Shown here: piece by piece, positions 15,528 through 39,353 of the stretch
How positions within the stretch are numbered: the first letter of the stretch is position 1
Layout: every line of letters begins with the position of its first letter
Notes under the pieces: model-generated
Told to the model about the DNA's origin: nothing
Databases searched by the model: none
Seen by the model: the letters and a program-made list of their open reading frames with translations, nothing else
Made by a program: the position numbers and the translations under genes
Virus record (IMG/VR): IMGVR_UViG_3300045125_000031
Location: 37,242 to 101,241 of that record
Source of the DNA: a virus
DNA: 64,000 bases
Strand: one strand, 5' to 3'

Positions 15528-16109
15528 TTATAGAGTTTGCCAATGTAGGTATTCTCTAAAATATCCATGCTGCATTACTGTTGGGTCTACCCACCAATCT
15601 TCATTGTAAGATCTTTGAACAAGGGCATATCCAAATGAATCAAGTATCTCTCTTTGTACATCTCTAATTTTACTATTTCTCCAATACATGTCCGAATCGT
15701 GTTCAAATGTAATTACGCTAAATCTGTATGTATTTAATGGCATTGCTATAAGACCTTGCAGCGTCAAATGACTATTCCCAACTGGCCTTCCTGCCATATC
15801 ATATCCAGCGTCTATGTCTAATTGCAAATAGTCTATTTGTTTTGGAAAGTTATTTTTTTCAAAATAATCCATATAGTTAAATGATAGGGCATCTCCCATG
15901 CATGGATTCTTTCTATTAGCATTAAACTCTTCTTTCATAGAGTCTATTATTTCAAAAGATACTCCAGTCCAATCATACTCATTTTCTAGCAAGTATGTAT
16001 TATTACCATTGCTGTAGTGTGCTGCCCCAAGTTCTACATAGTATCCATTCTTTTTACCATTTAAAATATTAATAATAAATTCTTCTTGCTTTGTAGTCAT
16101 GTGTGTCAT
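15528..16109 (-). CDS. FkbM-like SAM-dependent methyltransferase
   Basis: GYYVELGA, NNTYLLE..WTGVSFE, IDYLQLDID and FSVITFEHD motifs. Confidence 0.7.
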   Translation of the reverse strand: MTHMTTKQEEFIINILNGKKNGYYVELGAAHYSNGNNTYLLENEYDWTGVSFEIIDSMKEEFNANRKNPCMGDALSFNYMDYFEKNNFPKQIDYLQLDIDAGYDMAGRPVGNSHLTLQGLIAMPLNTYRFSVITFEHDSDMYWRNSKIRDVQREILDSFGYALVQRSYNEDWWVDPTVMQHGYFREYLHWQTL

Positions 16110-16670
16110 TGAAATAAATCTCCTTTTAGTCTTGTCGGTTTTTTTCTGTTCCATGGATAAAAACGGTAGAGAAGTATCTTATTGTATCATCTAAAACTGG
16201 AAGAGATCCGTGAACAATGTGCCCTCCATGTATATATAAAGAATTAGATTTTGGCTTAACCGTAATATTAATATCTGGATAGTCTAACTCTCCACCAGTA
16301 TATTCATCATTATAATATAAACAAAAGCCATATCCAATATAATAGTCTATATCTGTTCTCCATTGATCTGCATGATGCGTTATAAAATCTCCTTTTTTAT
16401 ATCTCTGTAAATGCAGTTTATCTGGATAATAAGAATATGACTCAAATAAATTTTTCATTTTTTCATTTATATCGTCAAAAATATTTTTGTCTTTAAAGCA
16501 TAAAGTTTTTCCAAACCAAAAATCTGGAATATTTTGTTCTTTTTTCATTTCTTCATCAAGCCATTTATCTTCTGAAGTATTTTTATAATTTTATTAACTT
16601 CAAACATTTCTTCATCAGTAAGAAAGTTATTAATTTCATACACATCATCATATAGTTTATTAATTTTCAT
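16106..16670 (-). CDS. 2OG-Fe(II) oxygenase, prolyl 4-hydroxylase-like
   Basis: HAD, LYYNDEYTGGELDYP and HG..PV....RY motifs. Confidence 0.8.
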
Positions 16671-16675
16671 TTTAG

Positions 16676-17345
16676 TTACATATACTTATTGTTAAATATA
16701 TGACTTACCTCCAAGTGATTTATATTCATATGTTTTGGCAATGAGGCCACCCACCTAATTGTTTCAGCCATGTCGTTAGCAGTAAGGGCATTATCTTTTT
16801 TCTATTTGTGTGTCAATTGTCCCTGGACATATTTCTGTTATCTTTATTCCATATTCAGGAAATTCCATACGCATTGTATCTATTAACGCCATTTGATCCT
16901 CGTTTGGCATTACTATAATTGCCTCCGCCTCTAAATGGAACTTTTCCACATAAAGATGTTATAAAGATAATTGTTGCAGACTCTGATTTTTTCATAGATG
17001 GAGCAAATAACTGAGACAAGTACATTGGCCCAGAAACATTAATATCATATGCTATTCTAAAATTTTCCATAGTTTCATTAATAATATGTGTTGGTCCAGA
17101 ACCTCCGCCAGCATTATTAACTAATAAGTCTAATGTTATGTTTTTATATTTTTCAAAAAAAGTATTTAATTTCATTCTCTTTTGTTATATCTAATTTATA
17201 AATTTCTACCATTATCAGATAATAATCCAGACATTTTATCAACATCTCTCGAAACAGCAATAACCTTATATCCGTTTTCAGATAAAAGTTTAACGGTTGC
17301 ATAACCTACACCTTTACTTGCACCAGTAACGATGGCTGTTTTCAC
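16676..17345 (-). CDS. Short-chain dehydrogenase/reductase (frameshifted)
   Basis: TAIVTGASKGVG, LLVNNAGG and YSNAK (YxxxK) motifs. Confidence 0.85.
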
Positions 17346-18076
17346 TACATGCCTTGCTGCTGGTTAAGTTGCATATTGTTATGTATCCAATGACCTGGGA
17401 CCATATACTTAACACCAGACTTTACTGTATGTGCCGTATGAAAATATGGCGCTTCTGCTGGGAAAATAATAACGCTATTTGCTTTTGGTTTTATTCCGAA
17501 ATCTATTGCATTGTTTGCAACAGCATCATCATAATCTAAATTAACTGGTGGAGCACCATGAACCCATCCATCTTTGCTATTCCATCCACCATCATAATTT
17601 TTTAATTGAAAGGATATCTCTCCACCATCGCAGTCATCATTTAAATACATGACTAGAGAGTATCTCAAAGTCTTATCGCCATCTAATTGATCGAAGTGTG
17701 CACCCATTGCCATTCCAGTATAATATTTCTTAATATTAAATGTTGGGAATAGCCTTGGCTCGTCAAAATCACCTAGTGACTCTGCATAATCCTTACATAC
17801 ATTATATAGGGTTGTCATGACTGAATCATAAATATATTTGCTTTTTTCTCCAACTATACCGCCAGACTTTGAGATGGCATCTATATCAAAAGTCTTTGTT
17901 TCTCCATAAATAAAATCTTTGTCATTAGAAGATGTCCACTTTTGCCAAAGATTAACCTTTGTATCATCATAAAACTCCATGGTATCTAACTCACTTAAAG
18001 TTTTTAAAAACACATCAAAGTTATCTATTGCGTCTGTATAATAATATACTTTTGGATCAAGAATTTCTCTATTCAT
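17345..18076 (-). CDS. 2OG-Fe(II) oxygenase, prolyl 4-hydroxylase-like
   Basis: HFD, MYLNDDCDGGEISF and HTAHTVKSGVKY motifs. Confidence 0.85.
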   Translation of the reverse strand: MNREILDPKVYYYTDAIDNFDVFLKTLSELDTMEFYDDTKVNLWQKWTSSNDKDFIYGETKTFDIDAISKSGGIVGEKSKYIYDSVMTTLYNVCKDYAESLGDFDEPRLFPTFNIKKYYTGMAMGAHFDQLDGDKTLRYSLVMYLNDDCDGGEISFQLKNYDGGWNSKDGWVHGAPPVNLDYDDAVANNAIDFGIKPKANSVIIFPAEAPYFHTAHTVKSGVKYMVPGHWIHNNMQLNQQQGM

Positions 18077-18077
18077 T

Positions 18078-18736
18078 TTAATACCTATTTCTTTCGTAAT
18101 GACCTATTTCTTTTATAAAGCCGACTATAACATATCTTATTGGCCCATCCCCTACATGCTTTACACCATGCTCTATACTCTTCATTTCCTGGAAAAAACA
18201 ATAAGTCTCCTGGTTTTGGCCTCAATGATATATCTTTATTTGGAAAGAATAATTCTCCATCTACGTAGTCATCATTAATGTATATTATTGTTGCATAGTG
18301 TATAGATGGATCTGTATGCTGATCAGTATGTGATTTCAGTTCTACTCCCTTTTGCATTCTTTGAATAGTGGCAAGCCCACTAAGTTCAAGTCCTGGGAAA
18401 GAAGGGTGAATTATATTTGCTAGTCTTCCGTAAAAACATTTTGTTCTGGGTGATGCTTAATATTTAAATTTTTATCTACCCAATTTTGAGTAATTTCAAA
18501 TTTCCCTTCAGCGACTAAGTTGTCAACATCTTCTCTGCCAAACTTTTCTAAACAAAATCTTTTTAGATTTCCCATATACTCTACTTCCCAATCTTCTTGA
18601 GACGCACCATTAATTATATTCCAAATAAAATCTAATTCTTCTTTTGTCAAAAAGTCTTTAATCCAAAGTAGTTCTGGAGTTACTTCTTCAAACTCTAAGT
18701 TATTATTTTTAAATTTTCTTTCAAAGAATCCATCAT
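18078..18736 (-). CDS. 2OG-Fe(II) oxygenase, prolyl 4-hydroxylase-like (frameshifted)
   Basis: HTD, IYINDDYVDGELFFP and PKPGDLLFFPG motifs. Confidence 0.8.
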
Positions 18737-18737
18737 A

Positions 18738-19490
18738 TTAAACAGCATCTCCTTTAAATAGATATTTATTGCCATCTTCATCTATTTTATATCCATCTTT
18801 TAGAAGTTCTTGCCATTCTGCTCTTTCAACTTCTTGCTTGGCTCTAGTCTCTTTCATTTCTTGCGCCCAAGCGTCTCTTAGTTCCTGTGGATATGCATCT
18901 TCTTCACGATCATCCCAGAATGAACCTATTGTATATCTAACTCCACTAGTTATAAGAGTTACCTCATGCATATTGTTGAATCCCCCGTCAAAAGCAGCAA
19001 GCATTCCAACTTTAGGCTTTATGCTTATTTGTTGATCTGGGAAATGCAAAAGTCCTCCATCAAAGTTATCATTCAAATATAAAAATGCAGCATATCTACT
19101 TCTAGTAAATGCTCCAGAGTTTCCGTGTTCATCTGTATTATCAGAATGCTTTCTAGCATAAGCCCCTGGTTCCCATTTCTGAGTATGATATCCAATTTGA
19201 GATATTATCTTTGAATCTAAATCATGAACGCTGGCAACTGCTTCTACAATACCCTTTTTAATTGTGTAAAAATATCAGAAGGTAAACCTTCGGCAATTAC
19301 ATGCTCGTCGTTATCTTGTGGCAAAACAGAAGAATAAGATTCATAAAACGATATAGGCATCCAACTAATGGTCCCTATTTCTGCATGTTTATCTAAAACT
19401 TTTATAAGTTTATCGGCAGTTTTCAGAATCAATAAAGTTTTCATAAACAACTATATCTTTTGTTAGTCTAACTTTATTTTCTAAGTTCAT
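18738..19490 (-). CDS. 2OG-Fe(II) oxygenase, prolyl 4-hydroxylase-like (frameshifted)
   Basis: HSD, YLNDNFDGGLLHFP and HEVTLITSGVRYT motifs. Confidence 0.85.
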
Positions 19491-20363
19491 CTAATTCTAA
19501 CTCCTTCGATTGAATCTTTATTTGCAGCATATTTGCCTATCATCTCTTTATGTAATTTAGACCAACTTTCAGTACCAAGTTCTTTTTCTTTATCAAACCA
19601 CTCCTGATCACCTATCTCCATATTTTTTCAAATAGTTTCTTATTAAGTATTTTTCTGTTTTAAAAGATGGGAAAACGCCATGTAAGTAAGGTTGATTATT
19701 TTTATTTAAAACATCTGGGTGTCCACTAGGGAAAACTACCCAATCACCTGCAACTGGTTTATACTTTATTAGATTACCATCTATATAAAAGTCAAGTTCT
19801 CCTCCATCATAATCATCATTAAAATAATAATTAGCAGTTATTGCAAACTTATAGCCTGGACTTTTTACTGGCTCTCTTACATAATCAGAATGATATCGCA
19901 TTGACATTACAGTATCTATATTTTTATTATATCTGCATATAGAAGGTCCTTCTTTTTTCCATAAAGGCAAATAATTTCCATCATGGTCTTTTGTTATTTC
20001 TTCTTCATTATAATTAAACATGTCTTTATATTTAGAAATATATGCGTCCATAGTTTTATTAAAACCATTACTTATTTCTAACAAAAGATATTTTTGATCT
20101 TCTTGTATTTTACTATTAGTTTTTAAGTCATTTATCAATTGAGAATTAAATTCAGCAGGCTTTCCTGTTTTTGGATTTAATTTAGAAAGTTCTGGAAAAG
20201 CAGTCTGAATATAACGACCAAAACCTTGCCAATCAGACCATTCTCCTAAAATTCTATCTGAATTATTGTTAGCAGATTCTTTAACTATCTCATATAATCT
20301 TTCTGGTTGATCATTAACATTTTTATATATCATTATGTTTTCATATAATTCTATCTCTTCCAT
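19487..20363 (-). CDS. 2OG-Fe(II) oxygenase, prolyl 4-hydroxylase-like
   Basis: HSD, YFNDDYDGGELDF and HGV motifs; C-terminal frameshift. Confidence 0.8.
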
Positions 20364-20365
20364 TA

Positions 20366-21123
20366 TTATCTCCTTATTCCTTTTTTTGGATCCCAAGACT
20401 TTACTTCTTCTTCTGTAGGAAAAATTCTATGGTACTTTGTATTTGGGTCTGGTTTTACATCTCCAGTATGCTCTAAAATTTCCCAGAAAAACGGACATGT
20501 ATATCTTAAAGATTTTGTGACTTCTGTTACTCCATGTACATAGTTCATGTCTCCTGGGAAAAAATATGCCGAACCACGTTTTGGTTTAAATTGAACTTTT
20601 TGATATGGAAAGTATAACTCTCCACCCTCATAATCATCATTGATGTAAAATAAACTTGAAATATCATAATATGGAAAATCGTTTGGTAATCCAGCATCTG
20701 ATCCAAAATGCAATTCTTTGTCTGCGTGAGGCATTTGGAACTGTCCTGGATTCCACTTAACAATTGTTTGTCCTGTAGACTGTACTTTGACCTTAAAAAA
20801 ATCTTCAATAATTGGTTGAAGTCTACTAAATAATCCTACTAAAACTGGAAGAATTTTTGGATCATTTGCATTTAAAGATGGCGCAGTTGCAACTCTATCT
20901 TTCCAATAACTTGAATCATAAATAACAGTTCCATTTTTCATTTATATGGCTTTGAGTAACATCCCAGATAGTTATGTTTCTTGCTGCTTTTTCTAAAAAA
21001 TCAACTTCTTCTTCAGTCATAAAATTTTTCTAACTCAACTATATTTTCAGCACCATAGCCAAAAAACCCAGATGGGGTGATTGATGGATGTCTTATTACT
21101 TTTACTGCATCTTCTGGTATCAT
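20366..21123 (-). CDS. 2OG-Fe(II) oxygenase, prolyl 4-hydroxylase-like (frameshifted)
   Basis: HAD, YINDDYEGGELYFP and HGVTEVTKSLRYT motifs. Confidence 0.85.
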
Positions 21124-21135
21124 ATTATTATTATA

Positions 21136-21842
21136 TCATCCTATAGTATTATCTTTTACGTATAATTTTAGGGTTTTTACTTCATGAGACCCTACAGATT
21201 CATTCTTTTCATTTACCGCATTTCTATACCAATCGGTCCAGTTGCCAGATGAATTAAGCACTTGTGCTGCTTCTCCGTAGGCAATGTTTGCATTTGTTCT
21301 AGAACGATCTACATCTTTATATTCTACAATCTCAATTGATGTATTATTTAAATTTGTTAAAGATATTGGAATAATTGTTGCAATAGGAGTTCCTGCTTTT
21401 ATAATAGTTTCTACGTTAGCCTTTTTGCCTTAAGAGCAAGAGGCAACGGGTTATCATAAAATGAAGTACTTATTACACTAGACATAGTTTCAAAGTCATC
21501 ATTAAAATAATTAACTGGATGTATTGTCCAAATACTAACATCTGGATCTGTTCTAAAAACCAAAGAAGTGTTTAAACTTATTGAAGATTGACCTCTTCCA
21601 GAGTATGAACCTGATGGACTTACAATCTTTATATGCTGGTCTGTCTGATCATTTATTCCATCCCACGTAAAAACTATATCTTCTGAACATGAAAGATACC
21701 AACCTATAACATTTGACTGAGTTACTGGAAAACATCTATATGCGTGGTTTTCAGACGTTAAGTCCATCCAATCTCTTTTAATTGACATTGGTTCGATGTT
21801 AAAAATACATCCCTGCATTTTTTCAACAGTAATATTAAACAT
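21136..21842 (-). CDS. Conserved hypothetical, DUF6065-like (frameshifted)
   Basis: KRDWMD....HAYRCFPVTQSNVIGW motif; this family is seen next to phage oxygenases. Confidence 0.55.
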
Positions 21843-22525
21843 TATTCATTTGCCCACTTTGGATCATACATATCTGGTGTATGATATTTTTACCTGTAAT
21901 CTAACATTGTTACAATTGAATATTTAGTTCCAGAGTGTACTGGCATTGCTTGATGTGGATACATAAAATTTGACGGGAAAACATATAGATCTCCAGCCTT
22001 TGGTTTTATATTTAGATTTTGCAGTCTAAAGTATAACTCTCCACCATCGTAGTCGTCATTAATATAGGCAACTAAGGAAACGGTACAGTTATAAGAGAAT
22101 CCATGGTCATGGTGTTCTTTGAAGTGTTGGCCTGGTCCATACTTGATAAAGTTAAGGCTTCCCAATATTTTAACGGCATAATGTTGTAATCTCTACGATA
22201 ATCATCTACTGCTGCTGCCTGTGCATCATATACATCTTGCCAAATTCCCTGAAGCAATAAAGAGTCCTTGCTTGGATCTGATTCAATATCAGTTTTCTTA
22301 AACTTAAAGTCATAGCAGTCACGATAGTCTGGCATTAATTGTTGATATCCTACATATGCTGGTAGCCAGTGATAAGGCTTACCCTCTGGAGATAATTCCG
22401 CCCCATGGTGCTGGAGAACCCAAAATATTTTCTAATCTTTCTATAATATTTAGTTCTGGCTTAATGACACCTCTATAGCAAGTAATTCCAAACCCTAATG
22501 TTTCTTTTTCTGTCCAAGTTGACAT
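21842..22525 (-). CDS. 2OG-Fe(II) oxygenase, prolyl 4-hydroxylase-like (frameshifted)
   Basis: HHD, YINDDYDGGELYF and FPSNFMYPHQAMPVHSGTKY motifs. Confidence 0.85.
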
Positions 22526-22536
22526 GATATCTCCTT

Positions 22537-23313
22537 TTACCTATACTCTCTTCTTGTCCAAACTTTATCTTTATATACCCCGCCATCTGGTTGACGATAA
22601 ATATTTGCGTTATCTACTATTTTAGCATATACCGTTGATGAATCAAGAATATCAAGTTCGTGTCTCCCAATTTTCTCTTTTAAATGGGAGTATCTGCAAG
22701 TATGGTGTTCCTGCTGGTATAGTTCCCTCCCAACCTTCAATAATAAAAATGGAAAACTACCTAATAATTCAACTTTATCTGAATCTACTACGCCAGTAGT
22801 ATTCATAAAAGGTAGATCAAACCTATTCATAGGTGTCATAAATAATGCACTATAGCCTTCTGGTAACTTCATGCCCCAGTCTGGCATCCAGGCAAAATGA
22901 TCTTTGTAATATCCTTGAGGATGTTCAAATTGTGCCATTGGTGGTCTAGATGTACAAAAATCTCGATACATTTGATTTCTATTTTAAAATCTAAAGATCC
23001 TTTATTATTTTTAGTAAATGTAATGTCAGTTGAGTTCTAAATACATATCCAGTTATAAAGGCATCCATGATTGCTGGACATGCTTTCTCATGTAGGAATC
23101 ATTCCATAATCATCTGTAGTTCCAGATTTTGGAAATGGACAAACCTCTTTGGGGCCTTATAGTATTCTCCATTAATTGGATTTTTAGCAAACCTATCAGC
23201 ATCCTTATACCATTGAGGTATTTCTTTTTGTGTAGGAGTTGGGGCAGATTTGCTTTCTTTGTTAGCCAAGGACGGTATGTCTTAAAAGAGACACTTTTTA
23301 TATCATCGGACAT
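22537..23313 (-). CDS. Conserved hypothetical phage protein (beta-rich, oxygenase-cluster associated), frameshifted
   Basis: KACPAIMDAFITGY and PEGYSALFMTPMNRFDLPF...GVVDSD fragments. Confidence 0.55.
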
Positions 23314-24026
23314 GCTGATGACCTAACTCATTAATATCAGTCATGATTACGACACAATACTTTGTACCGCTCTTCATAGGAAGAGACGCATGCTCATAAA
23401 TGTAGTTAGATGGGAATACAGCAATATCTCCAACCTTTGGTGTAAGAGTATAGCCGTCTAATCTTGGAAATTGTATTTCTCCGCCTTCGTAGTCATCATT
23501 GATATAGATAACAGCAGAGACAGTTGCATTATATGCTGGACCATGATCTGCGTGAATATTAAAGTGTTTTCCTTCGCCTTCATATTTTACAAAATTAAAT
23601 GCTTCATAATAAATAACATTAATTCCCCAATAACGTGCATAATCATCTATACAAAACTTTAATTTTTGATAAATTTCTTCATGTAGGTCATAAGTTCTCC
23701 ATTAAATCTCATCTCTGGGGCCAAGATTTTCTTGCTTGTATTTAAAATCTACAGCATCTCTTGCTCTTTTAATTGGTGTTGTAGAGTTTGTAACCTGTGC
23801 TTCTGACCATTTGTATCTTTTTGTTCCATCTAAATTTGATTCAAGTATTTTAATATATCTGTCAGCATCATCTTTACTAAAAACATTTCTATAGACGTTT
23901 AACCCAAGTCCAGGATTTTCTACAACTATACCATTTGGTAAAGTTTTTGTTGGATATCTTGTTTGATGCAGTTTCTGAACGATCTTTAGTAAACCAAGGA
24001 TTCTGGTTTTCATCATAAATTTCCAT
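23303..24026 (-). CDS. 2OG-Fe(II) oxygenase, prolyl 4-hydroxylase-like (frameshifted)
   Basis: Hand translation: HADHGPAYNATVSAVIYINDDYEGGEIQFP...FPSNYIYEHASLPMKSGTKY. Confidence 0.85.
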
Positions 24027-24051: not shown

Positions 24052-24490
24052 TTATGCTACTGTGCTAAAAGAGGTTCCGTCCCTGTTGTATGTTTGTCCA
24101 ACATATACAGTTTGTCTTTCTGGAATCTTTGCTAAGATCATACCTGCAGCATTTGCAGCAGCAAACATCTCTGCCTTTGGACCTTCTGACGGTACTGCCA
24201 TTCTTGCAACAACAACATTGTTAGATAAGAATGCATACAAATTAAAAGAATCTAATTGCTCTTGTGTAGCATTTAATAGATTAGGGACCTGCAGTTCCTC
24301 CAGAAAATGATGAGCCATTGAAAGTTGCTCCATGAAGTGCTGTTTGCTTATATGCACTTGCATCAATTGCTGAAATAGTTGCTCCAGTTTCATAAACTGT
24401 ATCAAGATTATCCATTACCTCTGGCTTATTGCTTGAATATATTCCAATAACATCATAAGCATCATTGTTTTCTACTAATATTGCGTACAT
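24052..24490 (-). CDS. Hypothetical protein (frameshifted)
   Basis: Two overlapping ORFs join into one gene with an RBS and upstream TATAAT; both halves end in a similar (F/R)(N/D)G(S/T)SFS motif. Confidence 0.55.
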
Positions 24491-24566
24491 TAATAATCTC
24501 CTTTAGTACTTTTATTATAGCATATGTTATTTAGTAGGGGCATATCTTCATATACCCCCACTAATT

Positions 24567-25539
24567 TTAACAACCGCATGATCTTCCTGGACAGCATACG
24601 CTACATCTCCAACAATATCCACAGAAGCAACTTCCGCCTCCGCCACCAGATGGTGGTGGTGAGAAACTTGGTGGGAAGAATGGGAAGAACGGGAAGAATG
24701 GGAAGAACGGTGGGAAGAATGGGAAGTAAGGGAAGTAAGGGAAGAACGGTGGGAAGAATGGGAAGTAAGGGAAGAATGGGAAGAACGGTGGGAAGAACGG
24801 GAAGAATGGGAAGAATGGGAAGAATGGTGGGAAGAATGGGAAGAACGGAAAGAATGGAAGAATGGTGGGAAGAATGGGAAGAACGGGAAGAATGGGAAAA
24901 ACGGCGGGAAGAACGGGAAGAATGGTGGCGTGGTATTAACACTATTTGTAGTTACACCAGTTGACTCTCCACATGCATTTGTAAGATAAATTGTATAAGT
25001 TTGAGAACCTGGGATACTCCAGGGTCGTTAGCAGTATATGATGTGCAGAACCAGATATACCAGTATAACTTGATCCATCCGAACCAGTGATTCTGATTGA
25101 TGTTGATTGCAGTACCTCCAGTTGCTGATCCTGCTGGAAGAGTCCATGATATTGTGTTTGTGTTAGCAGATGTAGCAGATGCTGAAACACCTGTAGGATT
25201 GTTTGGTCTTGTTGTAACTGTTACGGAAGATGAAGCAGATGATGCTGCTGATGTTCCAGAAGCATTAGTTGCTGTTACTGTAAAAGTAGGTGTTGTTCCT
25301 GCAGCAATTCCAGTCACAGTAATTGGAGATGATGCTCCAGTTCCTGTTTGACCAGTGCTTGCTGTAACTGTATAAGATGTTGCTGGAGGAGAACCTGCGG
25401 TAATTCAAATGGCAACTGACACAGCACCATCGTTGTATGCTCTACCACTACATGTTTGTTGGAACAACACTTAATTGGTGGCTTTGGCTCCAAGAAGTCA
25501 TTTGCTGCTGTGACTTTCTACCTACTTTTTAGTTGCCAT
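24567..25539 (-). CDS. FN3-domain protein with (Pro-Phe-Phe)n tract and Cys-rich C-terminal tip
   Basis: Hand translation of a frame absent from the ORF track: FN3-like TFTVTATNASGTSAAS and TISWTLPA, then TTPPFFPFFPPFF...PPSFSPPPSGGGGGSCFCGYCWRCSVCCPGRSCGC*. Confidence 0.8.
24670..24928 (-). repeat. Coding 9/12-nt tandem repeat (CCN-TTC-TTC), about 26 units
   Basis: GGGAAGAA(T/C) repeats on the plus strand. Variation is almost all at the synonymous Pro third position (plus three TTC-to-TAC, Phe-to-Tyr changes) in the PFF frame. Confidence 0.9.
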
Positions 25540-25562: not shown

Positions 25563-27617
25563 TTACTTAAGATCTCCGTAAACAATCCAGGTATTTGCTG
25601 CTCTCTTCAATAGAGTTGCAGATGACCATTGTGTACGTAGAGTTAATCCTGGAGTAGCATTTACAGTTACTCCTGCGCCTGCTGCAATTGCAACTGCGCC
25701 TGTATTTGTCTGAAGAACATCTGATAGAAGTTCCTATTGGGAAATTCGAGGTCGACTGCAGGAATTGTAACGTTTACTGCTGAACCACCAGTGTGAGAAA
25801 CCTCAATAAGTGAATCTCTTTCGAGTAATGCTCGCAAGAGTACTACGCTGTTTTTCTGAATAATTGGTGTTCGTGAAGGTACACCTTCCTTTGTTTGTGT
25901 TCCGTCTCGTAAATGCAACACCGCTTGCTGCAACGGTTACTGTTCCAGTAAATGTTGGTTTTGCAAGTGGTGCTTTTGCTGCAAGAGAAGTTGTTGCAGT
26001 TGTAGCAAAGTTTGCATCGTCACCAAGTGCTGCTGCAAGTTCATCAAGAGTGTTGAGTGCTGCTGGAGCAGATGCGATTACTGCATTTATTGAGATGTTG
26101 CATCTGCAATTGCTTCTACTTTGCAGTTGCGATTGCTGTTGACTTGTGCTATTGATACTGGCTTATTTGGCATCTGATGTGTTGTCAACATTGCCAAGAC
26201 CTACCATTGACTTTGTAACACCAGATACTGTTCCAGTAAATGTTGGTGATTCAAGATCTGCCTTTGCAGCAAAGACTTGTTGAAAGTCCATCAATCTTGA
26301 CTGTGCAATTGCTGCTGAAGCATTAATATCAGCATTTACAATTGTGTCCGTTTTCAATCTTTGCAGATGTAACGGCTCCATCAACAATCTTTGATGTTGT
26401 TCACAGAGTCTCCGCAAGTTTGTCTGCGGTTACGTTGGAGTCAACAATCTTTGCAGTTGTAACTGTATTATCTGTTGGTGTTCTTGTATCTGATAAACGA
26501 GCATCGTCTGTAAGCACAAGATCTGCAGTATCTAAAATTCCATGTATGTTTGTTGTGTCTGCTCTGTATGATCTTCAATTTCTGAAGACAAGGCCAATGC
26601 TGATGTATCGTCAATTCCATGTACATTAGTTGTATATGATCCATGTGTTGAAATAGCATCAGTTACATAAGATTCTGTTGCAAGTTCACCTGTATCTAAA
26701 ATTCCGTGAACATTTTGTGTAAGTAAGTTATGAGTTCCTACTTCACCAACTGCTGCGGTTCCTGCTGCAGTATCTGCATAGTCCTTAGTTGCAAGATCAC
26801 CTATGTTAGAAATTCCGTGTATATTTTGTGTTAAATCATTGTGGCTGCTAACTAAATTATCTGCATATCCCTTTGTTGCTGCATGAAGAGGTTCTGTTGG
26901 TGTACCAGATAAGGTAAGAACACCTGTCATTGTATCCCCATCCTTTGCAACCTTTTCTCCAACAAGACCAGTTATAGTTACTGCAAAATCTTCATCATCA
27001 GCAATAGCAGCAGAAAGTTCACTTAATGTGTTTAATAATTCTGGTGCTCCTGCAATAAGTGATGAAATTCTTCCTTGTACAAATTCTTGTTGTAGCAATC
27101 TTTGTTGTATTATCAGTACCATTTTGAGTTGTTGCTACTGAGTTTGAGCCAAGATCTGCTGAGACTAATGTCTTATTCGTTAACTCTTGAGTACCTGTTA
27201 ATGTAACAACAGTATTATCAATATCAAACTGACTTGTGCCAGCGTTCCAATCAATGCCTTCACCAGCAAGTGTTGACTGATTTACTTCTGCGTTAGAAAT
27301 TGCATCTGCAAGATCATCTAAAGTTGCAAGGTTTGCTGTGTTTGCAATACCGTGAACATTTGTGGTAGCGCTTACGTGATTAGAGATACTGTGGGTCATC
27401 ACCAAGTGCTGCTGCAAGTTCTATTAAGTGTGTCCAATAACTCTGGAGCACCGCTTGCGTCTGTAAAATACTTAAGGGCAGACCATGCTGATGATCCATT
27501 ACCTATCTTAAATGCGCCTGTGTCGGTTTCAAAACCGATTTCACCTGCTGCTAAAATTGGGTTTGCGCTGGTCCACTGTGCTGCAGTACCTCTACGCTGT
27601 TGCATTCTTGTTGCCAT
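25563..27617 (-). CDS. Tail fibre-like protein with Mtd-type N-terminus, frameshifted
   Basis: MATRMQQRRGTAAQWTSANPILAAGEIGFETDTG, repeated (T/Q)NVHGI units, APELLNTL.EL.AAI motifs and C-terminus LRTQWSSATLLKRAANTWIVYGDLK. Confidence 0.75.
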
Positions 27618-30916: not shown

Positions 30917-30933
30917 GTGTTGATTATATCATA

Positions 30934-31476: not shown

Positions 31477-31506
31477 AATATACTTATTATACCACTTTTA
31501 AGATAT

Positions 31507-31536: not shown

Positions 31537-31592
31537 AGGAAGTAACATGACACCCTTTAACAAGGTGTCATTCCGTTTCTAAGGAGGAAACT

Positions 31593-32159
31593 ATGATTAC
31601 TTTTATGAATAATAACAAGAACATCATTGGCACACTCAGCATATTGGCTATGTTTGGAGTTTATTCAAATGTGGCTAATGCTTCTGAAAACCGATTAGAC
31701 GATAGTAAAACTATCGTGCTTGAAGAGACTATTGAGGCCACGAAAGTGGCCAAAAGTGTTTCTAGGGCTAAAGAAGATCAGTTAGAAAAATACAAAAATG
31801 CTGTAAATCTATCTCGACAAAGATCTTAAAAAATCTACTTAGATTAGTAGGTTTTGAAGGTCAACAACTAAGGGAGGCTTGGGCTATTGCTAAGAAAGAA
31901 TCTGGCGGTAGACCGATGGCATTAAACCTTAGCAAAAGAACTGGAGATAGTTCTTATGGCTTATTTCAAATAAATATGATTGGCGACCTTGGTCCTGAGC
32001 GTAGAGATAAGTTTAATTTAACATTCAAACTATGAGTTATTTAATCCAGTATTAAATGCTCAAGTTGCGTTCCACATGTCTAACGGTGGAGAAAATTGGA
32101 TTGCCTGGAAGGGCATTACTCCAAGAACAAAACAATTAATGGGTGGATTCCCACAATAA
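31593..32159 (+). CDS. Signal-peptide lysozyme-like/lytic transglycosylase (frameshifted)
   Basis: N-terminal hydrophobic segment with ANA-S cleavage motif; AWAIAKKESGG, SYGLFQIN and NWIAW motifs. Confidence 0.8.
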
Positions 32160-33035
32160 AACACCAGATGGGTCCAGGGCTGCTACTTTATTCTTAAAGT
32201 GGTTATGCCTTGGATCCATTCCGTGTTTTGCAGGCATACCAATAACACTATTTATAGATAAGAGTCCAGCAGATTGACTAAATGCAGAATTTCCAACTAT
32301 TAAGACCTTTGGCAGTTAACATAAAAATAAATGAACTATATGTGTCCATATCATTTCTTATTATTATATTTGGATATGCCTTTTTGAGCAAATCAAAGTT
32401 AATGCTTGTATGCTCATATTCTCCAGACTCATTTTGATATAAGTGTGGCTGTCTCCACATACGCTCTTGGTCATGTCCCTTTGGAGTAAAAGTACTAGTG
32501 TCAGAATCAGTACAAATAATAACATCTGGGTTATCCATTTTACATTTATCTATAATTTCTGGTATTTGTAATAAAACCCTTTCATAAAATTCATCCTCGA
32601 CATACCTTGGATTTTCTGGTATAGCATTTCCTCTTCTAATGTGTATAACTATAGAATTGTGAGTTTGACCAGTAAATTTATTAAAATGTATTGCTTCTTT
32701 TAAAAATCAATATCGTCGTTTGTAGTTGCAAAACCTGGAGCGTCTGCACCTGCGCCAACATTTTTACATAAACTTTTATATGGTATATCATCAAAATTAA
32801 TATTTTGCCATGGGTTATACAAAACATTATTAAATTTATCCATTAAATCTTTATATTTTGGATCATCTTCTCCATCAATACCATCAGATTTATGAATTAA
32901 AAACCAATCGATTGGTGTATCTTTAAATATTTTTTTATGGTACTTGGCATATGACATAGCATATATTTTTTTCCATAGCATTGCACCTAATCCATCCATG
33001 GTTTTAAATTCTTTGACAATATCTGTCATAACCAT
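32136..33035 (-). CDS. Glycosyltransferase, GT11/fucosyltransferase-like (frameshifted)
   Basis: DGLGAML, IVIHIRRGN and LIVGNSAFS motifs. Confidence 0.6.
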
Positions 33036-33981
33036 CCCCTGGATGTTAATTCATTATAATACATATCCTTCCAATGGAGTTGTCTATGTATTCCAGGATG
33101 TGGTCTATTTGATCCTGGACCCCATGGCCCAGCAAACTTATGATAGTCATAAGCCATATCAAAAATATCCATATGGTTATCAAAATATTCTTTATGGCAT
33201 TCAATAGAATCCCAATTTATCATTTTATATTGTGGTAGTAACTTATCTGTTGTATCTCCATAAATGTCAAATTCAAAATTTGTAGGAAACTGTGCTCTAG
33301 TCGTATCTTGAAAATAATTTTTAAAATTATTTTTTAAAAATGCTTCATCAGAATCTGTTAATGCATTTGACCATGTACTCCAAATAAGTTTAATTCCTTG
33401 TGAGTTACAAAATGTTTCTAACATTTTTATATGATCTAAATTTTGATAATACACCCACTCATAAGGCAAAATTTCTTGATAGTTCCACGGTGCTGTAACC
33501 TTGGCTTTCTTTGGTGAATAATTAATATACCAATCTTGCATGTATTCTGCATTTGGAGAAACAAAGTAAAATCTTTCAAAGTTTGCAAAATTACAAACAA
33601 CAACTTCTGGAACATATTCGTATTTATTTATTAATCCAAAAAACTAGAAACTAATTTATTTACTGCTGCTCCACTATATGATATATTTCCTATTAGATGT
33701 TTACTATATCCTAATTCTTCTTGCAGTAAATTAGACCATCTTAGATTTTCTGGAAGTCCTTGACCTAAAGTTAAGGAACAACCTAAAGCAATTATGTTTG
33801 GCTTTTGTGCAAAGTCTATAGACCTTAGTCCATCCTCATTCCACTGATAACTATATTCTGGTCTAGGTATTTCTGCATGTGCTGCAATGATTGGATCATT
33901 AACTTTATATTTTCTGTTCTTAGTATTTTTATTATATCCAACATGTGGTATTGGACCAGGGATATATAGGTCATCAAACAT
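33026..33981 (-). CDS. SGNH-like conserved phage protein (frameshifted)
   Basis: NEDGLRS, ALGCSLTLGQG and C-terminal HPG motifs. Confidence 0.5.
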
Positions 33982-33986
33982 AAAAA

Positions 33987-34064
33987 CTAGTATATCAGAT
34001 TAGACTTTTTTATCTTTCTATACTTTTTCCACATTCTGTATCTTAGAATTAATCTTTTTATCAT
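33987..34064 (-). CDS. 25-aa basic peptide
   Basis: MIKRLILRYRMWKKYRKIKKSNLIY*; ATGA-coupled to the upstream gene and fills the gap to the next gene. Confidence 0.4.
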   Translation of the reverse strand: MIKRLILRYRMWKKYRKIKKSNLIY

Positions 34065-35095
34065 TTTAACTTAGACTCCTCCCATTCTCTCCACCACATC
34101 TTTCTACCGCCTTCTAATGGATATCCTACCCAAGAATAAGGAACTCCTGTTGCTTTTGGTGGGTTATCAAAAAAGTCCCACGTCTCTATACCTCTTTGAT
34201 TTCGTACTCTATGTATGTAGGCTGAATAAGTACTTCCAGAAGTACCAACAAAGTTTATAGAATCATGTAAAACTAGGTTACAAATTAAACCAAAAATAAC
34301 CTCATCTTGAAATGGCAACGACATAAATTCATCTCTAAAATTATTGACAACATACTCATCAAGCAATATAAATCTATGCTTGTTATCTTGTATCATTTTA
34401 TTTCCTGGTTCACAAGTAGATACAACTATTGGTAAATTATTATTTTCATATATGCTTAGCCAAGACTCAAACATATCTTGTGTTGTATTAAACATTTTAA
34501 TATGATCTGAAAGTCTTAAATGCATTCCCTGGAAAGAACCTAAAGAGTTAGATATTTTTTTTGCTAAGTCTACATATACATCTTTAAATCTTACGGACCT
34601 TAAAGCATTATCTAGTTCTTGACTTCTGTTGTAAAAAAATCTACTATACCAACCAAGTGTTTTTTTAAGATGAAGATTCTTATCTAATGGAATTCTTTGT
34701 CTTCCTTCAGCAAATAAGAATTCATTTTCAGATATTTCATTTTCCTTGCTATAATAATATCCATTAAGAGTATCATCAATTACAAACTCTTCTTGTTTAA
34801 AAAAATCAATCTTCGTATCTATAAAAGTTAAATTTTCATTAAAGTTCATTAAATCTAAAAGATGTGGAAACTGATCTGGATTTGTAAAGTCTTTTCGTTG
34901 TTCATTATGCCATCTACTTGGTGTAAATATTGGAACATTTCGAGAATTGTATAAATCATCTCCTGTATTACTTACATAGTGAACAATCAAATCTTTTTTT
35001 GTTTCGTGTGCAAGTCCTACAGCCAACTCTAAACTCATGACCTGATTTATCATTCCTGTAGGATTATATAGTTGAAAAAAAATTTTATTTGACAT
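34061..35095 (-). CDS. GDP-fucose protein O-fucosyltransferase-like glycosyltransferase
   Basis: GMINQ (GxxNQ), GMHLRLSD (HxRxxD) and FVGTSGSTYS motifs of the O-FucT/GT-B family. Confidence 0.7.
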   Translation of the reverse strand: MSNKIFFQLYNPTGMINQVMSLELAVGLAHETKKDLIVHYVSNTGDDLYNSRNVPIFTPSRWHNEQRKDFTNPDQFPHLLDLMNFNENLTFIDTKIDFFKQEEFVIDDTLNGYYYSKENEISENEFLFAEGRQRIPLDKNLHLKKTLGWYSRFFYNRSQELDNALRSVRFKDVYVDLAKKISNSLGSFQGMHLRLSDHIKMFNTTQDMFESWLSIYENNNLPIVVSTCEPGNKMIQDNKHRFILLDEYVVNNFRDEFMSLPFQDEVIFGLICNLVLHDSINFVGTSGSTYSAYIHRVRNQRGIETWDFFDNPPKATGVPYSWVGYPLEGGRKMWWREWEESKLK

Positions 35096-36051
35096 TATTA
35101 ATTTGACTGCTTATCCATTTGTATGTTTCATTCATTCCATACTCTAAATCTTCGCTTGGTCTATACCCTAAAACCTTTGTTATTAAATCATTGTGAGATG
35201 TTCTAGCATGTACGCCTAATGGTCCAGGAACATATTTTTTGTTAAGTTTTTTATTAGCAATAGTACAAACTATATCAACCAACTCATTGATAGAAACATT
35301 TCTTTCAGATCCTATGTTTATTGGCTCAAAGTAATTTTCTTCTCTATAAAAATCTATTGTAGCCTTAACCGCTTCATCTATATATAAGAATGAACGATGT
35401 TGTTCTCCGTTGCCCCATATCTCTATTTCATCTGTTGCCTTTGCTACCTTGCGACAAATTGCTGCTGGTGCCTTTTCTTTACCACCATCCCATGTGCCAT
35501 ATGGCCCATATACATTGTGATATCTTCCTATCTTATTTTTCATACCATAATTTCTATTATATGCAAGATATAAGCGCTCACTAAAAGTTTTTCCCAGCCG
35601 TACTCTGTGTCTGGTGCTGCTGGATAAACAGAATCTTCTTTTGTATTTATACTTTCTGGGTCCATCTGATTATACTCTGGATAGACACAAGCGGTAGATG
35701 AAAAAAATATAGATCTAACTCTTACTTTTTCTGCCTGTTTTAAAACATTAACATTTATTAATATTGAGTTACCCATAACTTCGGCATCATTATCGCCAGA
35801 GTTAATATATCCTGCTCCACCCATATCAGCAGCCAATTGATAGACTTCATCAAATCTTATTGGCATTACTTTTTCTACAACGTGTGGGTCTCTTAAATCT
35901 CCAATTACAAAATCATCAGCATATGTCTTCCAGTGTTCTGGATATTTGAGGTCTACACCACGAACCCAAAGCCCTCTTCTTTAAGTTTCTTAACAAGATG
36001 ACTTCCAATAAATCCTCCTGCGCCAAATACTATTGCTGTCTTTGATTCCAT
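35085..36051 (-). CDS. GDP-mannose 3,5-epimerase-like NAD-dependent epimerase (frameshifted)
   Basis: GAGGFIGSH, YQLAADMGGAGYI, SSTACVYPE, YGWEKL and GGKEKAPAAICRK motifs. Confidence 0.85.
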
Positions 36052-36595
36052 TGTTCCTCCGTTATAGTGTTACGAATTACATCTAAATACCCTGGACCTT
36101 TTTGTACCCACCAGTGATCTGGCTCAACAAAATGAAAAAATATCATTGCTACATTTCCAGAATCTGGGTTTGGAAATTTTTCTCTCCAGTGCAACTGTTC
36201 ATTTCCATAATAGGCAAGGGCTTGATTTGGATATAATGTATATGCTTTATCTTTTACAAATAAATCCCATGGCTCTGTTTGATAAACACAAAAATCTATA
36301 GTGTATGTACAAGCGTTATCATCTATATGCTTATATAGATTTGCTTGCTGTCCTTCGTAATGTGCAAAAAGAGAATATGATGGAATAAGTGTTTCACTAT
36401 CAAACTTCTTTCTAGCAATTGGTATTAATTTTTCTGCATAAGAATCTATTAGCGAATCATTGAAACAATATCTTCCAAAACCAGCAGAATAGTCTTCTGG
36501 ATTTTTTGGTTTATTTTTTAAATAACTGCTAAGTTCATTATATTCTTCTTCAGAAAAACCTTATCCATAATGACTGGATCTTTAACGTGTATCAT
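36030..36595 (-). CDS. 2OG-Fe(II) oxygenase (frameshifted)
   Basis: Hand translation: LYKHIDDNACTYT...YYGNEQLHWREKF...AMIFFHF. Confidence 0.7.
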
Positions 36596-37193
36596 CTTAA
36601 CCAACTTACTACTGCATATCTTGTTCCACTAGTTACTGGAAGTACAGAATGATTATACATATATGTTGATGGGAAAATAATTAATTCATTTTTTCTGGTT
36701 TATGACTTACATTAAACCTTGGAAACTCTATCTCTCCACCTTCATACTCATCATTCATATAAAATATTGTAGACATTCTTCTATGATGATTTGTGTGGTC
36801 ATCTATATGATTAGTGAATTTTTGACCAACACCATACTTTAAAATACCATAGTCATCGTGCCAAGTGGTTTCAAATGAAAACATTGATCTATAGTCTATT
36901 TCTCTAGGATTAAATGCTTCAAAAAATATATTAGACAAGTTTCCATAAAATGCATCACTAACAGTCATAAAATCATCAACTATATGGCCTTTATATGGTA
37001 CACCTATAATTGCTGTATCTCTAGCATTAGTATCTACTTCGATACCGTCTTTGTTTTGTACTAGAGATTTATTCCATTCTACATTTAACGATGCAGCGCC
37101 TTCTTCAATATCATTTATTAAAGTAGATATAATGTTATCGTCTAGCACATTTTTATAAGAAACAATACCTGGAGCAATTTCATTTTTAAGCAT
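36592..37193 (-). CDS. 2OG-Fe(II) oxygenase, prolyl 4-hydroxylase-like
   Basis: HID and YMNDEYEGGEIEFP; after a frameshift, FPSTYVYNHSVLPVTSGTRY. Confidence 0.85.
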
Positions 37194-37194
37194 A

Positions 37195-37434
37195 TTACCA
37201 CTTTTCTAGTGGACAGGTTGCATTTAATAATTTAGTTTTAGCAAACATAAAACATCCACACTTTTTACATTGCTTTGTCAGTTTAATTAGTTCTGGGCAA
37301 GATTGACAAATAGAATATCTTTCTTCCGCTACCTCTTTTGATGCCCATTCTGTTTCAGGGTTAACTAGATCCCATGGTCTAGTATCTCCAAGGCTTTCTT
37401 TATATTTTTGCCATACTGATTTTTCTTCTGACAT
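37195..37434 (-). CDS. Small Cys-rich protein (DUF6171-like)
   Basis: R..IC..C......QCKKCGCFM..KT.L..A.CP..KW pattern. Confidence 0.65.
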   Translation of the reverse strand: MSEEKSVWQKYKESLGDTRPWDLVNPETEWASKEVAEERYSICQSCPELIKLTKQCKKCGCFMFAKTKLLNATCPLEKW

Positions 37435-37472
37435 TTTTCCCTACTTTTGTATAGTTATTTATACATTATACA

Positions 37473-39353
37473 CTAACAAGCACAGGTTTGTCCAGGACAA
37501 CATACATTACATCTCCAGCAATATCCACAAGTACATCCTGAACCTCCGCCAGTTGGTAAAGCAACAGGTGCTGCTGGGCTAGGTGCTACAGGTGCTGCTG
37601 GGCTAGGTGCTACAGGTGCTGCTGGGCTAGGTGCTACAGGTGCTGCTGGGCTAGGTGCTACAGGTGCTGCTGGGCTAGGTGCTACAGGTGCTGCTGGGCT
37701 AGGTGCTACAGGTGCTGCTGGGCTAGGTGCAACAGGTGCGGGTGCTGGTGATGGTGCAGCAGGTGAAGGTGCTACTGGAGCAGGGGATGCCCATGGCTCT
37801 GAAGAACACTCGCCAAAGTTGGTGCTCCAATAATATCCACATGACTGACACTTAGACTGGTTATATGACCAAGCCAAGTTTACATCACATGATGCGACAG
37901 GTGCAGGTGTAGGCGCTACAGGTGCTGGTGCTGGGGCAGGTGAAGGTGCTACAGGACTTGGCGCTACAGGTGAAGGTGCTACAGGACTTGGTGCTACTGG
38001 TGCTGGAGCAGGTGATGGAGCAGAAGGTGAAGGTGCTACAGGACTTGGCGCTGCTGGGGCAGGTGATGTCCATGGGGTTGTAGAACATTCACCAAATGTA
38101 TCTGAGTAGTAGTATCCGCAAGCCTGGCACATAGACTTAGTGTATGACCAAGCATCTGCAGGATTACATGATGCTGCAACTGGTGCTGCTGGTGCAGGTG
38201 CAGGTGATGGTGCTGGAGATGGTGCTGGAGATGGTGCTACAGGAGCAGGTGCAGGTGCTGGACTTGCACCGCAACTTGGTGTTCCGCTTTGAGGAGTTGA
38301 TCCACATACCCAACCTATTGGTGGATAACCATTTGCATTTTCTTGAGCAGCGTATGCATCTGCACAAGTTGCTGATGTTGCAAAAGGACCGTTAGGACTA
38401 TTTGTTAAATCACAATATCCAAAGTAATTTGTTGCTGCTACTGGTGCTGGGGCAGGTGCTGGGGCAGGTGCAGGACTTGGAGCAACTGGTGCAACAGGTG
38501 CGGGTGCAACAGGACTTGGTGCAACAGGACTTGGAGCAACTGGTGCAACTGGTGAAGGCGCTACAGGACTTGGAGCAACTGGTGCAACTGGTGAAGGCGC
38601 TACAGGACTTGGAGCAACTGGGCTAGGTGATACAGGAGCAGGTGCAGCAGGTGCAGGTGCTACAGGAGCAGGTGCTACAGGAGCAGGTGATGGTGCAACT
38701 GGTGAAGGCGCTACAGGAGCGGGAGAAGGAGTTGATCCTTCATATACATCGCCAGTAACTAACCAAGTATTAGTATCTAGTTTTATAACAGTAACTCTGC
38801 CGTATTGAGAATCAATATATGCTGCACTAGGATTTTTGCTAAGAACTGTTGCAGATGAACTAATAACTACTGTACCAGTTCCTAATCTAACCACATCAAA
38901 CTTAAAACCATTTGCTATTGGTAACTCTGCATTTGTTGGCAGGGCAATTGTAGAAGCAGAAGAACTGTCTACAGTAATTACTTTCCCAGCATCATTTAAA
39001 TCAATACTATAAGAGCCTAACTTTGATACAACATTTGAATACCCTGATACATTCTTCCATCCATTATGATAATACTGCAATTGATTTATTACAGTGCCAC
39101 CAGTTGTAGACTGTCTTACAAAACAAACTGATCCATCTACTGGGTTTGGTATAGCAATGTCACGAGTTTCTGGAGACTGGAAATTATTAATGCCTGCTCT
39201 TGATATTAAAACTTCTTCAAAAGTAACGGGGGATGCGAAGGTTTGTGAGGCAGTCCAAGTATAGGAAGCATTAGTATTAATAGCACCACTGATGGCATAC
39301 CATGTGCCATCTTTATAAATGTATGCTACTTTACCGTCACTATTAATTGGCAT
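37473..39353 (-). CDS. Fibre-type N-terminal domain plus Pro/Ala/Ser/Val repeat stalk with Cys modules and Cys-rich tip
   Basis: Intact 626-aa ORF with (PVAPS/PAA)n tracts, two related AWSY....CQ.CGYY.S..FGECS..PW modules and the C-terminus GGGSGCTCGYCWRCNVCCPGQTCAC. Confidence 0.85.
   Translation of the reverse strand: MPINSDGKVAYIYKDGTWYAISGAINTNASYTWTASQTFASPVTFEEVLISRAGINNFQSPETRDIAIPNPVDGSVCFVRQSTTGGTVINQLQYYHNGWKNVSGYSNVVSKLGSYSIDLNDAGKVITVDSSSASTIALPTNAELPIANGFKFDVVRLGTGTVVISSSATVLSKNPSAAYIDSQYGRVTVIKLDTNTWLVTGDVYEGSTPSPAPVAPSPVAPSPAPVAPAPVAPAPAAPAPVSPSPVAPSPVAPSPVAPVAPSPVAPSPVAPVAPSPVAPSPVAPAPVAPVAPSPAPAPAPAPAPVAATNYFGYCDLTNSPNGPFATSATCADAYAAQENANGYPPIGWVCGSTPQSGTPSCGASPAPAPAPVAPSPAPSPAPSPAPAPAAPVAASCNPADAWSYTKSMCQACGYYYSDTFGECSTTPWTSPAPAAPSPVAPSPSAPSPAPAPVAPSPVAPSPVAPSPVAPSPAPAPAPVAPTPAPVASCDVNLAWSYNQSKCQSCGYYWSTNFGECSSEPWASPAPVAPSPAAPSPAPAPVAPSPAAPVAPSPAAPVAPSPAAPVAPSPAAPVAPSPAAPVAPSPAAPVAPSPAAPVALPTGGGSGCTCGYCWRCNVCCPGQTCAC
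37567..37734 (-). repeat. 24-nt coding tandem repeat x7 (VAPSPAAP)
   Basis: GGTGCTGCTGGGCTAGGTGCTACA repeated; the last copy has one substitution. Confidence 0.9.

Follow-up and report, generated by a model that had tools for sequence, protein, structure and literature searches.

Proline-repeat fiber stalks, a shared cysteine-rich tip and prolyl-hydroxylase-like enzyme clusters in the tail-fiber module of an uncultured freshwater phage

Few unexplained genes are as common in aquatic phages as those for 2-oxoglutarate (2OG)-Fe(II) oxygenases, and a cyanomyophage genome may carry up to about two dozen of them. Here we analyze two groups of such genes that lie behind two proline-repeat fiber proteins in 64,000 nt of IMG/VR virus DNA (hereafter the window) from record IMGVR_UViG_3300045125_000031, which is 101 kb long and estimated to be 92% complete. 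What the phage enzymes act on has been an open question since at least 2010 (PMC2938197). In phage Syn9, Iyer, Abhiman, de Souza and Aravind (2010, PMC2938197) described ten tandem dioxygenases and a dUTPase-fold protein in which a cysteine is conserved; no protein substrate was named.

The locus studied here is the tail-fiber module of a phage from an abundant, uncultured freshwater lineage with related contigs of up to 117-120 kb. All genes of the finding are on the minus strand, and searches of cultured phages gave no close relative of this phage. By analogy, the closest precedents for the chemistry are the prolyl 4-hydroxylase (P4H) of virus PBCV-1 with its proline-rich open reading frames (ORFs), and the PhyA/Gnt1 pathway that acts on Skp1. 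Eriksson et al. reportedly described in 1999 that the PBCV-1 enzyme is active on peptides and that the virus encodes ORFs of PAPK-like proline-rich repeats. Freeman et al. are said to have found in 2023 that mycobacteriophage glycosyltransferases modify capsid and tail-tube subunits, without hydroxylases or proline-repeat stalks.

In the present locus, oxygenase arrays lie directly behind genes that are almost entirely proline-rich repeat, which provides a concrete candidate substrate. We judged the evidence about evenly balanced on whether, as the gene content suggests, this phage modifies its own proline-repeat fiber stalks by hydroxylation/glycosylation, with the tip of the stalk as a swappable module that has its own helpers. 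The repeats are a likely and well-motivated candidate substrate for such modification.

Two stalk proteins and their tip

Both stalks are fiber-module proteins with proline-rich spacers, and they share one design: a folded part on the virion side, a long proline-rich spacer, a glycine linker and, at the end, an 8-Cys module of 20 aa. The features concerned are:

24567-25539, minus strand: PFF stalk protein, its gene broken by at least five frame changes in the window record
24567-24629, minus strand: tip 1 and stop codon, GGGGGS-CFCGYCWRCSVCCPGRSCGC-stop, C-terminus of the PFF stalk
37473-39353, minus strand: long stalk protein, 626 aa, an intact ORF
37473-37535, minus strand: tip 2 and stop codon, GGGSG-CTCGYCWRCNVCCPGQTCAC-stop, C-terminus of the long stalk
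25566-27617, minus strand: long tail-fiber gene, fragmented in the window, ending in a ~100-aa domain (..ANTWIVYGDLK)

The PFF stalk runs from a short basic N-terminus through two FN3-like domains and (PPFFPFFPFFPFF)n to the glycine linker and the tip. On the window fragment the fn3 profile scored E 1e-4, which is below cutoff, and AlphaFold2 modeled two FN3 beta-sandwich domains at pLDDT 84-93, a prediction that supports the FN3 assignment. The long stalk consists of an N-terminal fiber-type part, the ~100-aa domain shared with the fiber, (PAAPVAPS)n spacers, 4-Cys mini-domains, the glycine linker and the tip; its folded part is a fiber-type beta domain, and the mini-domains interrupt the spacer. 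These mini-domains (37800-38700, minus strand) are repeated units of ~30 aa with the pattern C..AWSY..S.CQxCGYYYS..FGEC, which includes a rubredoxin-like CxxCGY knuckle (CxxCGYYY), and no family was found for them. A fiber domain common to the two stalk loci had been proposed in an earlier sequence-only reading of this DNA; the domain is real, but the likeness between the fiber C-terminus and the long stalk is weak (26% identity over 99 aa, E 2e-6).

The same reading had pointed to a shared 8-Cys tip, and rereading the two tips bore this out: 15 of 20 residues are identical and all eight cysteines are kept. The tips are conserved, and not a recent copy, because only 57 of 78 bases agree and the differences include synonymous ones. 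A degenerate DNA pattern for CGYCWRCxxCC, the kind of search the sequence-only reading had proposed together with scoring for nearby proline repeats, retrieved 33 further viral stretches from IMG/VR. In every one of these the motif was the extreme C-terminus of a protein and followed a proline-rich repeat of the PFF, PAAPVAPS or PT type, and several of the motif-bearing contigs carried both stalk proteins. The viral search and the window itself give 35 stretches with the motif so placed, to which the two prokaryote-genome contigs named below are added. Twelve tip positions were invariant, among them G, Y, W and R. A search of prokaryotes (one genome for each of 185,579 species) gave two true matches, with phage-like neighbors and both from contigs of one Lake Mendota metagenome-assembled genome, and eight others that were off-frame noise. 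When the tip profile was run against 1.84 billion representative proteins, it found one true match (an ortholog), two spurious repeat proteins and no other architecture; against PDB sequences it gave solely an insignificant resemblance to a rubredoxin knuckle (WRCxVC, E 1.1). Judged by these comparisons, the sharing of the tip goes beyond chance.

The window record had to be read with care. Indels of 1 nt pervade it, most of its genes run through two or three frames, and ORF-based reading is unreliable. Compared with the related locus L021, the window contains 86 indels of a length not divisible by three in 12.6 kb, and the deletions often fall within A or T runs; its proteins are 85-99% identical, gene for gene, to those of clean relatives. 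We read the indels as uncorrected long-read error; the clean relatives are L020, L021 and L033. The fiber gene and the PFF gene can be read through in the window only with repeated frame changes. The PFF gene had been described as lying in a frame that the ORF track missed, and its ORF is indeed broken in the record; however, the gene is absent from the track because of the 1-nt indels and not because of a hidden frame, and in clean relatives it is an ordinary intact ORF of 314-340 aa. Stop-codon recoding was rejected as the cause of the broken frames, because TAA, TAG and TGA all occur among the in-frame stops and the reading frame itself has to change. A read-through fusion of the fiber and PFF genes was found unlikely by coordinate arithmetic: the two share a frame in L021 and are in different frames in L008 and L028.

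Enzyme clusters behind the stalks

Cluster 1 follows the PFF stalk, and the features behind the PFF gene are:

24491-24566, minus strand: conserved 15-bp hairpin lying between the PFF gene and u145, with an invariant TGCTATAAT element and then a ribosome-binding site after it
24055-24490, minus strand: u145, a 145-aa orphan with two (W/F)(D/N)GxxF motifs, directly after tip 1
23306-24026, minus strand: P4H-like oxygenase 1, 240 aa
22540-23313, minus strand: phrog_7084 protein, 259 aa, paralogue of the DUF6065 protein
21845-22525, minus strand: P4H-like oxygenase 2, 227 aa
21139-21842, minus strand: DUF6065 protein, with an invariant Cys in the alignment
20369-21123, 19611-20426, 18741-19490, 18081-18713, 17348-18076 and 16129-16590, minus strand: six more P4H-like oxygenases
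16682-17345, minus strand: SDR protein
15531-16178, minus strand: conserved ~195-aa protein without a known family

By Pfam search, cluster 1 has eight separate PF13640 domains and cluster 2 has a single one. The nine matches ranged from E 3e-16 to 7e-6, most of them covering profile positions 2-98, and all nine paralogues aligned with HxD, the distal H and (K/R)Y, that is, with complete HxD..H..K/R catalytic motifs. Their nearest solved relatives were the P4H of B. anthracis (E 1e-7), human LH3 and the collagen lysyl hydroxylase of mimivirus (L230); the nearest PDB entries were 3itq and 5hv0. These data suggest that the nine enzymes are P4H/lysyl-hydroxylase-like protein hydroxylases, and it is the gene context that points to peptidyl-proline as their substrate. 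A further PF13640-like oxygenase (59466-60263, plus strand, E 3.6e-5) lies among early-type genes and would be the tenth of the record.

The eight P4H-like oxygenases and the SDR protein listed for cluster 1 by the sequence-only reading were thus recovered, but that list had omitted u145 and the two DUF6065/phrog_7084 proteins. Its FkbM-like methyltransferase was not supported: the ~195-aa protein at 15531-16178 had no match in Pfam, PHROGs or NCBIfam. Protein u145 likewise had no match in these three collections, and a PDB profile search was also empty. The AlphaFold2 model of the DUF6065 protein was weak (pLDDT 58) and Foldseek matched it to dUTPases at TM 0.33/0.55; a dUTPase-like fold is a lead only, which agrees with the description by Iyer et al. 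(2010, PMC2938197).

The hairpin in front of u145 has a folding energy of -24 to -26 kcal/mol (z about -5). Compensatory changes preserve it in four lineages (window 24491-24566, L021:5196-5271, L028:9186-9270 and L022:1955-2040), with an invariant ACATATGCTATAATAAAAGTA after it. Scans for sigma-70 and terminator consensus sequences showed no enrichment. The hairpin and its element are probably a 3'-end or a terminator plus promoter, marking a boundary between transcription units, and the earlier statement that each stalk heads its own operon is doubtful for cluster 1 with these elements in between.

Cluster 2 follows the long stalk:

37195-37434, minus strand: Zn79, 79 aa with 7 Cys, zinc-ribbon-like, DUF6171 / phrog_13558
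36595-37193, minus strand: Ox200, a P4H-like 2OG-Fe(II) oxygenase with one frameshift in the window record
36030-36557, minus strand: 191-aa HxD..H protein of phrog_2954 (cyanophage 2OG oxygenases mislabelled 'ferrochelatase')
35085-36051, minus strand: GDP-mannose 3,5-epimerase with two frameshifts; its ortholog L020:3923-4888 is intact and 91% identical to the window
34061-35095, minus strand: fucosyltransferase-like protein, 344 aa, O-FucT/NodZ/FUT8-like, with an HLRLSDH motif
33026-33981, minus strand: 318-aa protein without a known family; its GCSLTLG motif is SGNH-hydrolase-like by eye only
32139-33035, minus strand: GT11-like fucosyltransferase-like protein, 299 aa, with an HIRRGN motif and frameshifts in the window

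The Cys-rich protein noted at the head of this cluster proved to be the DUF6171-like Zn79, which scored 25.5 bits against DUF6171 (gathering cutoff 27; fused relatives, 29-30 bits) and E 2.5e-16 against phrog_13558. Two oxygenases had been claimed here; one is a PF13640 protein, whereas the other is the HxD..H protein of 191 aa, probably a divergent oxygenase. The epimerase ortholog matched Arabidopsis GME (2c59) over its full length (residues 7-320, E 2.6e-84) and keeps the catalytic motifs (C in SSAC.YPE, Y and K in YGxEK, K in GGxEKAPAA); by homology, the enzyme is a bona fide GDP-mannose 3,5-epimerase. Pfam matches of the two fucosyltransferase-like proteins were weak (E 0.04-0.12, and 0.0026 for a homologue in L017), their Atlas feature scores were 0.96-0.97, and PF10250 is recorded on homologues of 70-73% identity. 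Motif I, the HxRRGD-like sequence that binds GDP, has the form HIRRGN (299-aa protein), HLRLSDH (344-aa protein) or HLRRGD (homologues from L011 and L015). The product of the epimerase, GDP-L-galactose, is the 6-hydroxy analogue of GDP-L-fucose, and because of this resemblance fucosyltransferase-like enzymes would be sensible partners for it.

No match to Pfam, PHROGs or NCBIfam was found for the 318-aa protein. Pfam did not match PF11397 in the ORFs of the clusters or in their clean orthologs, to which that scan was limited, and the radical SAM domain PF04055 had no match in the whole 101-kb record.

Genes that travel with the repeat and with the tail

We searched for the PFF repeat and obtained more than 120 viral stretches among the matches listed; the tail-type counts below rest on these. 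The C-termini of the PFF proteins were hypervariable: there were Cys-rich tails of at least 19 kinds, ends of the Hint type (..HNK), ends that were short and charged, and bare repeat. We grouped them into 42 distinct tail types (19 Cys-rich and 23 other) and scored each type for an oxygenase within three genes downstream and for a u145-family gene or Zn79 within two genes downstream. Wherever a related locus had enough flank, the gene order was the same: stalk, helper, enzymes.

Results showed that an oxygenase lay downstream in 33 of the 42 tail types, comprising 15 of the 19 Cys-rich and 18 of the 23 others, which argues that the array is tied to the repeat and not to the tip. Since the array is indifferent to the tail, the tip appears to be one of many interchangeable C-terminal modules, that is, one allele of a hypervariable swappable set and not the common handle of the enzymes. 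An enzyme-recruiting tag was one of the roles that the sequence-only reading had considered for the tip, and the counts do not support it: the array follows repeats with Cys-free, Hint-type or bare ends equally often. The helper genes behaved differently. A u145-family gene or Zn79 lay downstream of 17 of the 19 Cys-rich tail types versus none of the 23 others (Fisher 7e-10, a value that overstates a clean pattern because tail types are not phylogenetically independent). In the window, u145 stands behind the PFF tip and Zn79 behind the long-stalk tip. By these counts u145 and Zn79 are helper genes that co-vary with Cys-rich tails, and this coupling provides a way into the orphan families DUF6171 and u145. 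We found no paper in open-access text on PFF-repeat proteins, on the present Cys tip or on the function of u145/DUF6171.

Natural fusions join several of these parts. Proteins P0245-P0250 include fusions of u145 to Zn79, with u145 hidden Markov model scores of E 1e-10 to 9e-15 in four proteins and 2.6e-5 in P0250. Zn79 is fused to PF11397, the family of the Skp1 hydroxyproline-N-acetylglucosamine (GlcNAc) transferase, in L067:930-2129 (plus strand) and in P0248 (E 4.6e-40 and 8e-50), and in these relatives the PF11397 domain occupies the same position behind the stalk as the cluster enzymes. At L098:9174-10172 (minus strand), a radical SAM/SPASM gene has Zn79 on one side and the oxygenase array on the other, behind a PFF protein whose Cys-rich tail is of another kind; L098 was alone in this among the fetched loci compared.

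Other forms of the same families were seen. In P0252, Zn79 is fused to a domain of ~280 aa whose HIAKTGGTY motif is sulfotransferase-like by eye only. The window holds a second, divergent Zn79/DUF6171 copy (43659-43883, plus strand, 37% identity) outside the enzyme clusters, and the Zn79 neighborhoods inspected in two cultured cyanophages showed no link to oxygenases. Some PFF/proline-repeat stalks, in L072, L084, L117, L089 and L109, end in a Hint/intein-like ..(V/T/I)HNK and not in a Cys tail, which suggests that these ends may be self-cleaving.

Readings of the locus and comparison with known systems

If the phage does modify its own stalks, the oxygenases would hydroxylate residues of the proline-rich spacers in the infected cell. 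At the second stalk, the epimerase would convert host GDP-mannose to GDP-L-galactose (or GDP-L-gulose), and the fucosyltransferase-like enzymes would then transfer this fucose-like sugar to the hydroxylated spacer or to Ser/Thr within it. The outcome would be a stiff, hydrophilic, protease-resistant appendage; its tip may be a small distal knob, stabilized by metal or disulfides, which the helpers would fold, load or cap. A hydroxyproline-glycoprotein suits cluster 2 better than cluster 1. The overall interpretation offered at the outset is partly supported: the fiber proteins, the P4H-like enzymes and the sugar enzymes stand, the link between tip and enzymes is not supported, and the operon at cluster 1 is doubtful. 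If the phage does make such stalks, hydroxyproline (glyco)proteins would be products of tailed phages as well as of algal giant viruses and eukaryotes, and host-recognition appendages would bear an enzymatic decoration that genome-based prediction of host range ignores.

Several observations weigh against modification of the stalks. Cluster 1 has no glycosyltransferase, and it is perhaps a transcription unit of its own because the conserved hairpin and TGCTATAAT element separate the PFF gene from u145. AlphaFold2 left the PFF repeat and tip unmodeled (pLDDT 33-57). All loci share fiber, lysozyme and RNR neighbors, and the adjacency of stalk and enzymes is perhaps inherited synteny because the loci all belong to one broad phage group. 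Many phages carry Zn79 homologues in settings that have no relation to this one. Lastly, an alternative substrate for the hydroxylases lies 2 kb upstream:

40897-41622, minus strand: collagen-like structural protein; in some of its ~14 G-X-Y triplets Y is Lys

A possible, though on balance doubtful, alternative is that the oxygenases, together with the dUTPase-fold proteins and the SDR, are a tailoring island complete in itself. Its target would be a small molecule or short peptide, or else proteins or nucleic acids of the host, and its adjacency to the fiber would be inherited. Syn9 has the same combination of ten tandem dioxygenases and a dUTPase-fold conserved-Cys protein, and small-molecule (secondary-metabolite) products were proposed for such arrays (PMC2938197), which again counts against the stalks as substrate. 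The nearest cultured-phage homologues of our oxygenases are dispersed, being scattered across cyanomyophage genomes; moreover, the hairpin element parts the PFF gene from the array, and the array continues into an RNR gene. On the other hand, the array stands directly behind the PFF-repeat gene in 33 of the 42 tail types, the closest solved enzymes are peptidyl-Pro/Lys hydroxylases, and relatives add a domain of the hydroxyproline-GlcNAc-transferase family at the same place.

We consider it unlikely that the 8-Cys tip is a docking tag, much like the enzyme-recruiting tag of the sequence-only reading, which DUF6171 (Zn79) adaptors read in order to deliver modifying enzymes to the stalk. The restriction of Zn79 and u145 to positions behind Cys-rich tails, the fusion of Zn79 to a PF11397 glycosyltransferase in L067 and P0248, and the radical SAM/SPASM enzyme beside Zn79 in L098 would all fit such a role. 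However, most lineages have oxygenase arrays without a Cys tail or Zn79, the PFF stalk of the window has u145 without Zn79 or a glycosyltransferase, neighboring genes can fuse without docking, and Zn79 homologues are widespread elsewhere. A wider form of the idea, on which we place similarly little weight, is that Cys-rich tails in general might be address labels, read by DUF6171 adaptors and u145-type partners that recruit different modifying enzymes (the hydroxyproline-GlcNAc transferase, radical SAM/SPASM and perhaps sulfotransferase-like domains) to structural proteins, while specialized P4H paralogues would hydroxylate Pro/Phe repeats at multiple sites. If true, this would be a C-terminal counterpart, on virion proteins, of the leader-peptide recognition of ribosomally synthesized and post-translationally modified peptides (RiPPs).

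It is very unlikely that the hydroxylases target the collagen-like protein or other structural proteins while the proline-rich repeats are unmodified flexible linkers. The collagen-like triplets do include GPK-G and GEK-G, sites of the Lys-hydroxylase type, and the solved relatives include LH3 and mimivirus L230. However, the collagen-like gene adjoins neither enzyme cluster and offers one short tract for nine to ten diverged oxygenases, and the feature that recurs is the adjacency of repeat and array.

Other genes of the window complete the setting. The sole plus-strand gene within the module (31593-32156) encodes a lysozyme-like protein with a hydrophobic N-terminal segment, whose ortholog matched SLT_3 at E 2.6e-15. 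Just upstream of the fiber module, a 268-aa protein (44141-44944, minus strand) has an N-terminal match to the glutathione-peroxidase/thioredoxin-fold family PF00255 (E 1.2e-10), and it could bear on the thiol chemistry of the Cys-rich proteins. Farther off lie a prohead protease S78 domain (6265-7551, minus strand) and a DUF932 protein (53793-54830, plus strand).

We return to the known systems with modification of the stalks as the reading to be compared. With the tail-fiber cassettes of lambda/P2 Tfa and T4 gp38 the locus shares a C-terminal fiber module and a small downstream gene that vary together; it differs in that u145 and Zn79 have no detectable homology to those helpers and that the tip is just 20 residues long and 40% Cys. 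The glycosylated mycobacteriophage virions resemble what is proposed here in that phage glycosyltransferases act on the phage's own structural proteins. The Syn9 array, like that of the window, is a run of about ten diverged classical 2OG-Fe(II) dioxygenases with a dUTPase-fold conserved-Cys protein. However, a JmjC member and Trp halogenases are present in Syn9 and were not seen in the window, whereas the window array directly follows a proline-repeat fiber protein, its candidate substrate.

In the Skp1 pathway of Dictyostelium and Toxoplasma, the prolyl 4-hydroxylase PhyA and the GT60 enzyme Gnt1 likewise hydroxylate proline in the cytoplasm and then add a sugar, and relatives of the present phage carry PF11397 fused to Zn79. 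The window clusters have a GDP-mannose 3,5-epimerase and fucosyltransferase-like proteins instead of PF11397, and the phage target would be a repeat polymer, whereas that in Skp1 is a single proline. PBCV-1, like this phage, encodes a P4H-type enzyme and proline-rich repeat proteins (PAPK-like there; PAAPVAPS and PFF in the window). It is, however, a eukaryotic giant virus with one enzyme, reportedly active on peptides, whereas the window comes from a tailed phage with nine to ten paralogues, and in the window the putative substrate genes adjoin the enzymes.

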